Below, one piece after another: positions 24,743 to 27,700 of a DNA stretch of 64,000 nt. The notes beneath the pieces were generated by a model, which was not told where the DNA came from, did no database searches, and was given only the letters and a program-made list of their open reading frames with translations. The translations under genes were made by a program, and so were the position numbers. Origin of the DNA: a virus (lineage: Duplodnaviria; Heunggongvirae; Uroviricota; Caudoviricetes); the IMG/VR virus record IMGVR_UViG_2721755651_000007. One strand, given 5' to 3'. Numbering within the stretch: the stretch's first letter is position 1; each line of letters opens with the position of its first letter.

Positions 24743-27700
24743 TCAGCTGATACTGATGCCTGCGGTGGCTTTCTTCATCACCACAACCAGCAAATCGCTG
24801 ATACTTGCTGTGGGATACCAGTTATTCACCAGCCATGCTGACACCGAAAACTCCAGCGTCATGTGACCGTGACCGGCAGGCATATCAATAACGCCACTGT
24901 AAATCAGCGTATTATCCAGCGCGGTACGGTTATAAATTTCAGCACCGTTTTTCCGCACTATCAGACGGCATGAGGAGTAAATATCAGTATGCTCTCTCTC
25001 TCATGTTTAGCGCCGCTGAATGCCACCGCCGGAATAACAATCTGCCGGTCAAACGGCTGATCGTCATAAACCCTGACGGTAATGGTCCCTGATGGCCACC
25101 GTTCCGGTGCACGGGAGTCCCGGGGGAAAGCTTTGCCCACTGTTTTAACGAGATCGCCTTCAATCTGGTTCGCGGACAGTTTTCCCAGAACCCGACAGTT
25201 CTCGTTAATCGTGACGTTGTTGAGCGTCCCGGAGTTCGCATTCACACTGCCACTGATATCCGCATTTTTAGCGGTCAGCTTTCCGTCTGATGTCAGGGAA
25301 AATGCCGGAGGATTGCCGCCACTGGTAATGGTGGGAGCCGTCAGATATTTCAGGAACACTTCATTCATGAATATCTGATCGCCCTGACCAACAAACATCG
25401 GCTTTGTGTTGCCATTCGCAGGATTAATCATCGCAATCCTGTCTGCCGCCAGCAGCACCTGACTCTGCATGCCGTCAGAGGTGTTCTCAATACCGGCACC
25501 GATACCCGCAATATAAAGGCGTCCGTCCTGCATCTGCTGCAGCTTCACTGCCCACATGCTGTTCAGGTTATTATTTGTATCAACCTGAACCTTCTGTATC
25601 TGCTGGATCGCTGCACTCTGGTCTTCCAGTTTCTTATTGACGGTCTGCGTGATTTCATTACTGACATCCGTGATGGACGTTCTGATTTCCGCCAGGTCAG
25701 GCGCAAGCTGACCGTTATCAATCTGAGTCCACAACTCCTGAGCCAGATGGGTTTTCCCTATCTCTCCTTTGAAAAAATCCAGATAGCCGGATGCATCATC
25801 ACTCGGCTGGCCAACAGCCTCCACAAATGCCGATTTGCCAACGGTGTTCACACTGCGGATATAAAAGTAATAATCATGGCCCGGTTTGATATTGATACTG
25901 GCGGCTATCCAGTACAGCCCCGTGCCAAGGTAGCGGGCTGTGGTTTCAACCTGCCTGATATCGGTAATCCGCGTTTCCGAAAACCAGAACTCAAACTGTA
26001 CCGTCGGGTCATACACCGCAAGACGCGGGACCGCTGTTATCTGAAAATAGCCCGGTGTCAGCTCAATCTGTGACGGCGCTGCCGGTGCGGCAATCCGGAA
26101 CGATACCGACGCCGGATCGCCCTGCTGCCCCCACGCATTTACCGCCCGGACTGTCAGCCTGTAGTTCCCCGGCGCCAGTTGCGTGAAGCGGTATGTGGTT
26201 TCCGTCGTCCGGGCCGTGCTGACCAGCCGCTCACTGCCGTCATCCGCGGCCACGGTCAGGCGAAGCATAAAGCTCACGCCCTTCACCACCTTCGGCGTGT
26301 CCCATTTCGCCTGCGCCAGATACTGACCGTCAGCTGCGCTCACCTCCACCGTCAGGTGCTGCACTGCCGGAGGGATGACGCTGTTCAGGGTGCCTGACTG
26401 CGGCTCAAAGCGGGCACCGTTATCCACGATGGCTTCTTTTTCCGGTACGTGCTGCACCGCCGTGATGGCAAAGGTGCCGTCCGTGTTTTCCCGGATGGAG
26501 ACACAGCGGAACAGGCGACGACGCAGTGACGGCAGGGAGAGCCCCCACACACCGTATGTCTCCACGCCATCCGGCAGGGTGCTGACCTGTATCCGGTCCG
26601 GCGCGGGGTGTGCAGTGATGGCCACGCTCACCGGCTTACCGCTGCCGTTAATCAGGTTCACCGTGGCGGCACCGGTCTCCGGCAGGGTCACCTCACGGTC
26701 CAGTGTCAGGGTGCGGCTGGCGGCATCGATGGACAGGATACGTCCGCCGGTCATGGTCCCGGCATAGTCGTTATCACAGATTTCAATAATGTCACCGGGT
26801 GTGTGACGCAGCCCCTGTGACCCGAGCGTGAAATCCACCGTCTGCGTTTCCAGCAGTCCGGTCTTTATCACCCACAGCCCGGCACGGTGGGCCTGACCGC
26901 GACTGGTGCAGCCGAACGCATCCATCTTCAGCAGGTTGCGTCCGTAGCGCAGTATGGCTTCCGGGTCTTCCACCAGTTCCGTGGAGGTCTGCCAGCCGTT
27001 CTGCGGGTCGGTGTAATTCACCTCCACCGCCGTGTGGCGGTCCTTCAGGGCGCTGAAGCTGTAGCGAAACCCCACGCCGTTATCATCCACCACCACATCA
27101 CTGCTGGTGTAGGGCCACACCACATCTGACGGACGGTCCTGCACAAACGTCAGCGTCTGCCCGTTCCATACCGGCATACAGCGCATCGCCGAGCAGAAAT
27201 CACTGAGAACGTCCCACGCCTTACGCTGTTGTGACAGGTACGCATTGAAAGTCATCCGCGGCTCTGTGCCCCCGAAACCATCCGGGACCGTCTGGTCGCA
27301 GTACTGCGCAATGGCATACAGCGCCCACTTGTCCACATCCGCCGCCCCCAGGCGTTTTCCCATTCCGTAGCGCGGGTGGGTCAGCATGTCCCACAGGCAC
27401 CAGGCAGGGTTGTTGCTGTATGCCGGTTTCAGGCTGCCGTCCCAGATGCCGCTGTACGTGCGTTTTTCCGGGTCATAGTTTGACGGTACCTGGATGATGC
27501 GACCGCGGATATGGTAGTTCACCGTCATCTGCTGACCGCCAAACTGCTCCGCATCCACCTGCAGCCCCACAATCGCCGTGTTCGGGTAGCACTGTTTCAC
27601 ATCGATGATTTCGGTGTATGACGACCAGAGCGTCTTATTCTGCAGCTGGTCCGAGGTGCTGTCCGCTGTCTCCCGGACCATCCGGATGTTAAAGGGCCGC

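Follow-up and report, generated by a model that had tools for sequence, protein, structure and literature searches.

A fixed +2 frameshift in a GA run of the tail tip gene J of the defective lambdoid prophage Sp12 of Escherichia coli O157:H7, very probably inactivating and likely due to replication slippage

The closest described relative of the gene considered here is the tip attachment protein gpJ of phage lambda (PDB 8iyk and 8xcj), which comprises six Pfam domains (PF24801, PF13550, PF24421, PF24489, PF09327 and PF12421). Genes of the lambda J type stand in the order M-L-K-I-J-lom-stf, upstream of lom and of the side tail fibre genes. The gpJ structures continue through the site that corresponds to the tract described below, and the protein is encoded in a single frame. 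Repeat-driven frame changes are known from the contingency loci of Haemophilus, Neisseria and Campylobacter, where di- or tetranucleotide tracts in the coding region of surface genes shift the reading frame when their length changes; for a dinucleotide contingency tract, five units are short. The third system of relevance is prophage Sp12 of E. coli O157:H7 Sakai. Its host specificity, portal, head, integration, repressor and recombination functions were all scored as disrupted (Asadulghani et al., 2009; PMC2669165, Table 1). In the tables of the same study Sp12 is non-inducible and is without recorded excision, circularisation or circular DNA, or packaged DNA.

The window (the whole stretch of 64,000 nucleotides that was analysed; IMG/VR record IMGVR_UViG_2721755651_000007) matched strain 319 of E. 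coli O157:H7 (NZ_CP018241.1) with 100% identity over an 11.7-kb stretch; strain 180-PT54 also reached 100.0%, with a slightly lower score. Window coordinates equal 1817774 minus the coordinate in record NZ_CP018241.1. By comparison with Sakai the window corresponds to the tandem prophages Sp11/Sp12. Sakai Sp12 occupies the same site beside Sp11 and has the same tract allele in J, here written (GA)5; the two are identical over a query of 601 nt (the final 558 nt of J and 43 nt downstream) and in the cargo from lom to nleG7. In contrast to the window, L, K and I are intact genes in Sakai Sp12, and its J is a mosaic with 184 differing sites and a second frameshift, a 1-nt deletion at the equivalent of window position 27112. 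The window, which is of the strain 319 type, keeps an ancestral deletion across the shortened L (L'), K and I, and the extra GA is the only lesion in its J.

That J is broken in this prophage is already on record: the identical stretch of strain 319 is labelled 'gpJ ... frameshifted' and treated as a pseudogene by RefSeq/PGAP, Sp12 J is split in the Sakai annotation into three 'phage host specificity protein' CDSs (ECs_2233-2235), and host specificity is among the functions scored as disrupted in 2009. An explicit description of the extra GA unit was not found. The features of the locus are listed in Table 1.

Table 1. Features of the J region and of the surrounding prophage genes (window coordinates)
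Feature	Coordinates	Strand	Remarks
gpJ (tip attachment / host specificity protein) pseudogene	24743..28221	minus	3479 nt, +2 nt relative to the intact 3477-nt allele
(GA)5G tract, site of the +2 frameshift	24992..25002	minus	intact alleles have (GA)4G, coding Glu-Arg-Glu (GAG AGA GAG)
Truncated J frame	24961..28221	minus	1076 native and 10 aberrant residues, then TGA at 24963-24961
Out-of-frame remainder of J	24743..24991	minus	last 82 residues and stop
71-aa ORF with GTG start	24743..24958	minus	portion of the out-of-frame J segment after the first possible start codon
Terminator-like hairpin and T run between J and lom	24705..24724	minus	normal gene-end context, outside the lesion
lom (Ail/Lom outer-membrane protein)	24076..24675	minus	intact, directly downstream of J
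Remnant of minor tail gene L	28484..28846	minus	first 363 nt only
End of I and I-J spacer	28222-28483		262 nt
Portal protein pseudogene	35402..37923	minus	'frameshifted; internal stop'; a further independent lesion

The tract at 24992-25002 is GAGAGAGAGAG. Read on the minus strand, the codons GCG GTG GCA TTC AGC GGC precede the break, which reads GCT AAA CAT GAG AGA GAG AGC ATA CTG ... GTC TGA. The protein runs ..AKHERE and then through ten aberrant residues (AGC ATA CTG ATA TTT ACT CCT CAT GCC GTC) to the TGA. The listed long ORF spans 24961..28263, and J proper starts with the ATG at 28221. Deletion of one GA gave a J ORF of 1158 aa with no internal stop, so that 1076 native residues are kept in the window and 82 (1077-1158) are lost; the frame that encodes this C-terminal part includes VIDMPAGHG. 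The original prediction, which placed the break in the GA run with a stop 10 codons on and a J-like C-terminus in another frame, and which held that dropping one GA unit would restore a long frame, was thus correct in its description of the lesion. Relative to intact alleles the extra GA is the sole indel, the other differences being 42-54 substitutions. No other dinucleotide run in the 64-kb window reaches five units, and 100 dinucleotide-preserving shuffles of the sequence did not produce the tract once. Separate expression of the 71-aa downstream ORF is judged unlikely: no promoter-like site for it was found in 24000-25400, and no Shine-Dalgarno sequence was seen by inspection before its GTG.

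With one GA removed, the sequence is a lambda-type J. It aligned by phmmer with lambda gpJ (PDB 8iyk chain J) with E = 0, over residues 1-835 and 865-1157, and the six domains of gpJ were recovered above the Pfam cut-offs (FNIII-A_GpJ, Phage-tail_3, Ig_J, Ig_J_second, Phage_Tail_Tip and Ig_GpJ_C). In the repaired protein residues 1028-1158 belong to PF12421 (Ig_GpJ_C), which is described as 'C-terminal receptor binding domain', and the frameshift removes 82 of its 131 residues (63%). As in lambda, lom and the side tail fibre genes follow J; unlike in lambda, the frame of J is interrupted within the receptor-binding domain, after residue 1076, and the usual gene context is incomplete: M, lom and stf are there, but 363 nt are left of L, and K and I have been deleted. 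As judged from this domain loss, the truncated product would be unable to serve as a host-recognition tail tip.

The distribution of the allele was assessed with four versions of the tract region (86-92 nt) against 5426 complete E. coli genomes. The (GA)5 90-mer was matched exactly in 216 complete records; all displayed ones that bear a serotype label are O157. The (GA)4 88-mer was matched exactly in 893 E. coli records, with 1213 more at 95-99% identity. The (GA)3 probe had exact matches in three records among the 5426 genomes and the (GA)6 probe in none. Over 95% of approximately 5,460 J copies are (GA)4, with a handful of length-change events. Dozens of O157:H7 genomes carry the 601-nt stretch around the lesion (window 24700-25300) with 100% identity. 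Among 53 phage records the (GA)5 probe had no exact match, and all of the 30 listed (best 30 of 53) span 88 nt, as expected for (GA)4. The 114 IMG/VR loci divide into 103 with (GA)4 and 11 with (GA)5; in ten of the latter both flanking bases are of the Sp12 type, and the remaining one differs at -115.

The direction of the change was read from orthologous prophages. A repaired 599-mer (the last 556 nt of J and 43 nt downstream, one GA removed) had exact matches in five records, among them, with 100% identity, the intact alleles of O55:H7 strain DEC5B and of sorbitol-fermenting O157 strain 493/89. In both, J is annotated as intact, with 3477 nt and (GA)4, and the prophage has the same right-hand neighbours as in the window (lom, stf, an nleG-family gene, nleG7, IS256 and a DinI-like gene); in DEC5B it is located at ydfJ. 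The (GA)5 state is therefore derived, on the branch to typical O157:H7, by addition of a whole repeat unit inside a pre-existing repeat, (GA)4G versus (GA)5G. LSU61 was considered as a candidate for an ancestral Sp12, but its hit belongs to a different, Sp9-like prophage with nleA, nleH and nleF, and was not used for polarity; F3113 and PV15-279, which match the repaired 599-mer exactly, have at the ydfJ site a prophage in which a large deletion leaves the last 888 nt of J, and were taken as evidence of (GA)4 but not of an intact gene.

DEC5B and 493/89 already carry the L'/K/I deletion of the window, with L cut to 363 nt, K gone and I nearly gone. In the window the deletion that follows the L remnant takes the remaining L, the whole of K and nearly all of I, of which the last few bases are left. 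Since K, I and most of L are missing in both outgroups, J had lost its assembly partners before the frameshift, an order that fits neutral decay. The same prophage has further lesions beside the portal pseudogene, namely an internal stop in nleG and IS insertions, as expected under relaxed selection.

Within the Sp12 lineage approximately 216 of roughly 220 records are identical at the tract, and three single strains deviate. In TX 265-1 the tract is (GA)4 and J is annotated as intact. An IS629 insertion between L' and J is common to this strain and to (GA)5 strains such as F1273 and 7409, whose matched span is 2 nt longer. The tract of TX 265-1 is most economically read as a reversion or as a conversion from another J copy, mis-polishing being possible as well. 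NCCP 13946 has (GA)3, and strain 1613 a tract of 10 nt. Some of the three could be artefacts of assembly or polishing, because each genome holds 4-7 near-identical copies of J. A (GA)5 tract also occurs in Sp4 of PV15-279, beside tccP2 and tRNA-Ser and between Sp4-type SNPs at -115, -100 and +365; this J has in addition a GT insertion at J nt 629. The flanking markers are equally compatible there with an independent slippage and with a short-patch conversion (<~465 nt) from Sp12. In another prophage lineage (SCU-484 and UID2309220031) a C5-to-C4 deletion accompanies (GA)3, and the frame is regained after a scrambled stretch of 40 residues; in UID2309220031 this compensating 1-nt deletion lies 116 nt upstream of the (GA)3. 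The SCU-484 assembly is full of frameshift calls and its (GA)3 would by itself be weak evidence; the same allele is present in UID2309220031. The (GA)4 of TX 265-1, the Sp4 (GA)5 of PV15-279 and the compensated C5-to-C4 plus (GA)3 allele of other E. coli are noted as possible signs of toggling.

Several explanations other than a slipped, decaying gene were weighed. An error of sequencing or assembly, with a true (GA)4 tract and an intact J, was among the options of the original prediction; some assemblies are prone to errors in dinucleotide runs and in prophage genes present in several copies, and the lone deviant tracts of strain 1613 and NCCP 13946, together with the many frameshift calls of SCU-484, illustrate the risk. 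Against it, the exact (GA)5 90-mer was deposited in 216 complete records by many different laboratories, 11 independent IMG/VR loci carry it, and repeat assemblies agree (three of 86-24; EDL933 and its derivative WS4202; Sakai and its derivative 20R2R), so that error is rejected as having practically no probability. Nor is the tract the natural end of a J gene, which would have told against a break, since lambda gpJ and the phage records (30 listed of 53) read through it. A programmed recoding event, in which the ribosome or RNA polymerase would slip on the GA run (for instance by a +2 hop of tRNA-Glu from GAG to GAG) and some full-length J would be made, has in its favour that such a hop would in principle recreate the wild-type HEREH and that a rare AGA codon lies inside the run, both by inspection. 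No slippery heptamer of the X XXY YYZ form was seen by inspection, however, and the two-frame arrangement is not conserved in functional homologues, the phage records (30 listed of 53) and approximately 95% of E. coli copies being single-frame (GA)4. Moreover, (GA)5 is confined to decayed prophages with further frameshifts, as in the J genes of Sakai Sp12 (the 1-nt deletion) and PV15-279 Sp4 (the GT insertion). Recoding is accordingly regarded as negligibly probable.

A phase-variable tract, which would switch J at a useful rate between an active (GA)4 state and an inactive (GA)5 or (GA)3 state and serve, for example, to set which J proteins join the pool of tail proteins shared in a multi-prophage cell, would account for a tract whose length has changed more than once, in TX 265-1 and NCCP 13946, on the Sp4 background of PV15-279 and, as (GA)3, in another E. 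coli prophage lineage. Like the contingency loci, J has a short coding repeat that shifts the frame by length change, and a few independent changes are seen. Unlike them, its tract has 4-5 units, is nearly invariant within the clone rather than frequently polymorphic among close isolates (216 identical records, three deviants), lacks longer alleles (no (GA)6 in 5426 genomes) and has an on allele without functional context. With K, I and most of L gone, even an in-frame J could not make a tail in this prophage; the portal gene is broken too, Sp12 is neither excised nor packaged (PMC2669165), and (GA)5 is absent from functional phages, the listed ones (30 of 53) being (GA)4. The switch, also an option of the original prediction, is unsupported by these data and is considered highly improbable. 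The related idea of a recurrent, reversible hot spot at the (GA)4-5 run of lambdoid J genes, within their receptor-binding domain, that toggles J copies in multi-prophage EHEC genomes has a slim chance of being right; if true, it would change the set of tail-tip proteins available to co-resident phages that share tail parts. The GA run behaves as a weak slippage hot spot and not as a contingency locus. The origin of the extra unit admits one more reading, which leaves the pseudogene as it is: gene conversion with another J copy as donor, which would have brought in the neighbouring lom allele as well. The window has the ancestral DEC5B/493-89 sequence upstream of the tract; from approximately +336 nt (the start of lom) it differs from the ancestral allele by approximately 49 SNPs and matches all typical O157:H7. 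A recombination boundary thus lies within approximately 340 nt of the tract, and the J genes of O157 prophages are visibly mosaic. Yet the matches in E. coli, phage and IMG/VR sequences point to no (GA)5 donor outside the O157 clade, the single further carrier, PV15-279 Sp4, differs in its SNP background, and slippage in place is simpler; import is held to be unlikely.

Slipped-strand pseudogenisation is the one of the three originally proposed options that stands, on the one-unit indel, the intact (GA)4 outgroups and the other lesions of the prophage. With high confidence, the J of the window, which belongs to the defective lambdoid prophage Sp12, carries a +2 frameshift that is fixed and inactivates the gene. 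Replication slippage, to which the form of the lesion points, would have added one GA to the (GA)4G run that codes Glu-Arg-Glu. Translation of J would now stop 10 codons past the break, with loss of the last 82 residues and approximately 63% of the receptor-binding domain. The mutation arose after the split from O55:H7 and sorbitol-fermenting O157; with K, I and most of L already lost, J was presumably free of selection, and the lesion probably reached fixation as typical O157:H7 spread clonally. The GA run remains a weak slippage site, with rare further length changes in single strains.

The importance of the finding beyond correct annotation is small: this is a real but ordinary and already annotated pseudogene with value as a lineage marker. 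The 2-nt allele is a clean derived marker that separates typical O157:H7 from O55:H7, from sorbitol-fermenting O157 and from a few atypical O157:H7, and it gives an order of decay, with the K/I deletion first and the J frameshift second. For the biology of the prophage, Sp12 would be unable to make its own host-recognition protein, which fits the published view of a non-mobilisable, decaying prophage kept for its cargo of nleG-family effectors.

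In the Sp12 lineage, three variants of the GA tract in the tail-tip gene J were found, each in a single strain (TX 265-1, NCCP 13946 and strain 1613), and these tract lengths may be either real or artefacts of polishing. Tract variants were also found in J copies outside Sp12. In PV15-279, prophage Sp4 is located at tRNA-Ser beside tccP2, and its J carries (GA)5 on a background of Sp4-type SNPs, together with a GT insertion at J nucleotide 629; the Sp12-site remnant of that same strain has (GA)4, in contrast to its Sp4. The (GA)5 tract of PV15-279 Sp4 could have arisen either by independent slippage or through a conversion patch of less than about 465 nt. 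In the J allele common to UID2309220031 and SCU-484, a C5 run has lost 1 nt and, 116 nt away from it, the tract is (GA)3; a stretch of 40 residues in the receptor-binding domain is scrambled as a result, after which the frame is restored. This allele was called intact by PGAP in one of the genomes.

Location of the features described (L numbers are loci from other E. coli genomes, in their own local coordinates).
Feature	Location	Strand	Remarks
IS629/IS1203 and ISEc8 insertions	window 7047-8357 and 17804-20116		
nleG-family effector gene	window 22059-22412	minus	internal stop in this strain
Start of lom, divergent allele	window about 24483-24666		
L/K/I deletion region	window 28222-28846	minus	
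Portal protein gene	window 35402-37923	minus	RefSeq record of identical sequence: 'frameshifted; internal stop'
paa, adhesin gene (AcfC family)	window 53978-54736		early region of prophage
Sakai Sp12 J	L001 17084-20558		compared with window 24743-28221
NCCP 13946 J	L004 2824-6294		(GA)3
TX 265-1 J	L005 6080-9556		(GA)4; J annotated intact
Strain 1613 J	L010 6080-9557		10-nt tract
PV15-279 prophage Sp4 J	L011 5821-9298		(GA)5
SCU-484 J	L015		C5-run deletion and (GA)3
UID2309220031 J	L016 1318-4794		C5-run deletion and (GA)3

The J genes of Sakai Sp12 and of the window differ at 184 sites, and the differences are grouped in patches similar to the Sp9-like J of LSU61. A second frameshift in Sakai Sp12 J, a 1-nt deletion at the equivalent of window position 27112, is common to NCCP 13946. 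Together, the patches and the common deletion point to mosaic gene conversion in which J genes from different prophages took part. On the upstream side of the GA tract, typical O157:H7 does not differ in sequence from DEC5B, 493/89, F3113 and PV15-279, but about 49 SNPs separate its lom from the orthologous-prophage allele of these four strains; this contrast places a recombination boundary no more than about 340 nt from the tract.

The prophage that carries the window's J also has a portal protein gene annotated as broken, and an internal stop interrupts the nleG-family gene directly downstream of the tail fibre genes; the latter is intact (576 nt, DUF1076) in TX 265-1, 493/89 and DEC5B. An IS629/IS1203 copy interrupts an early gene of Sp11 in the window, whereas in Sakai a copy is found at the Sp11/Sp12 junction. 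The IS256-family element at the Sp12 end of the window is split by ISEc8, unlike the uninterrupted element of O55:H7 DEC5B and 493/89. The neighbour of the adhesin gene paa is a pseudogene for a fimbrial protein, which bears the label 'frameshifted; internal stop'.

Upstream of J, the first 363 nt of the minor tail gene L remain, K is deleted and I is nearly all deleted, whereas all three genes are intact in Sakai Sp12. The leftover 262 nt correspond to the last part of I plus the spacer between I and J, with 81.5% identity to Sakai Sp12. Since O55:H7 DEC5B and O157 493/89 have the same deletion, it is older than the J frameshift.
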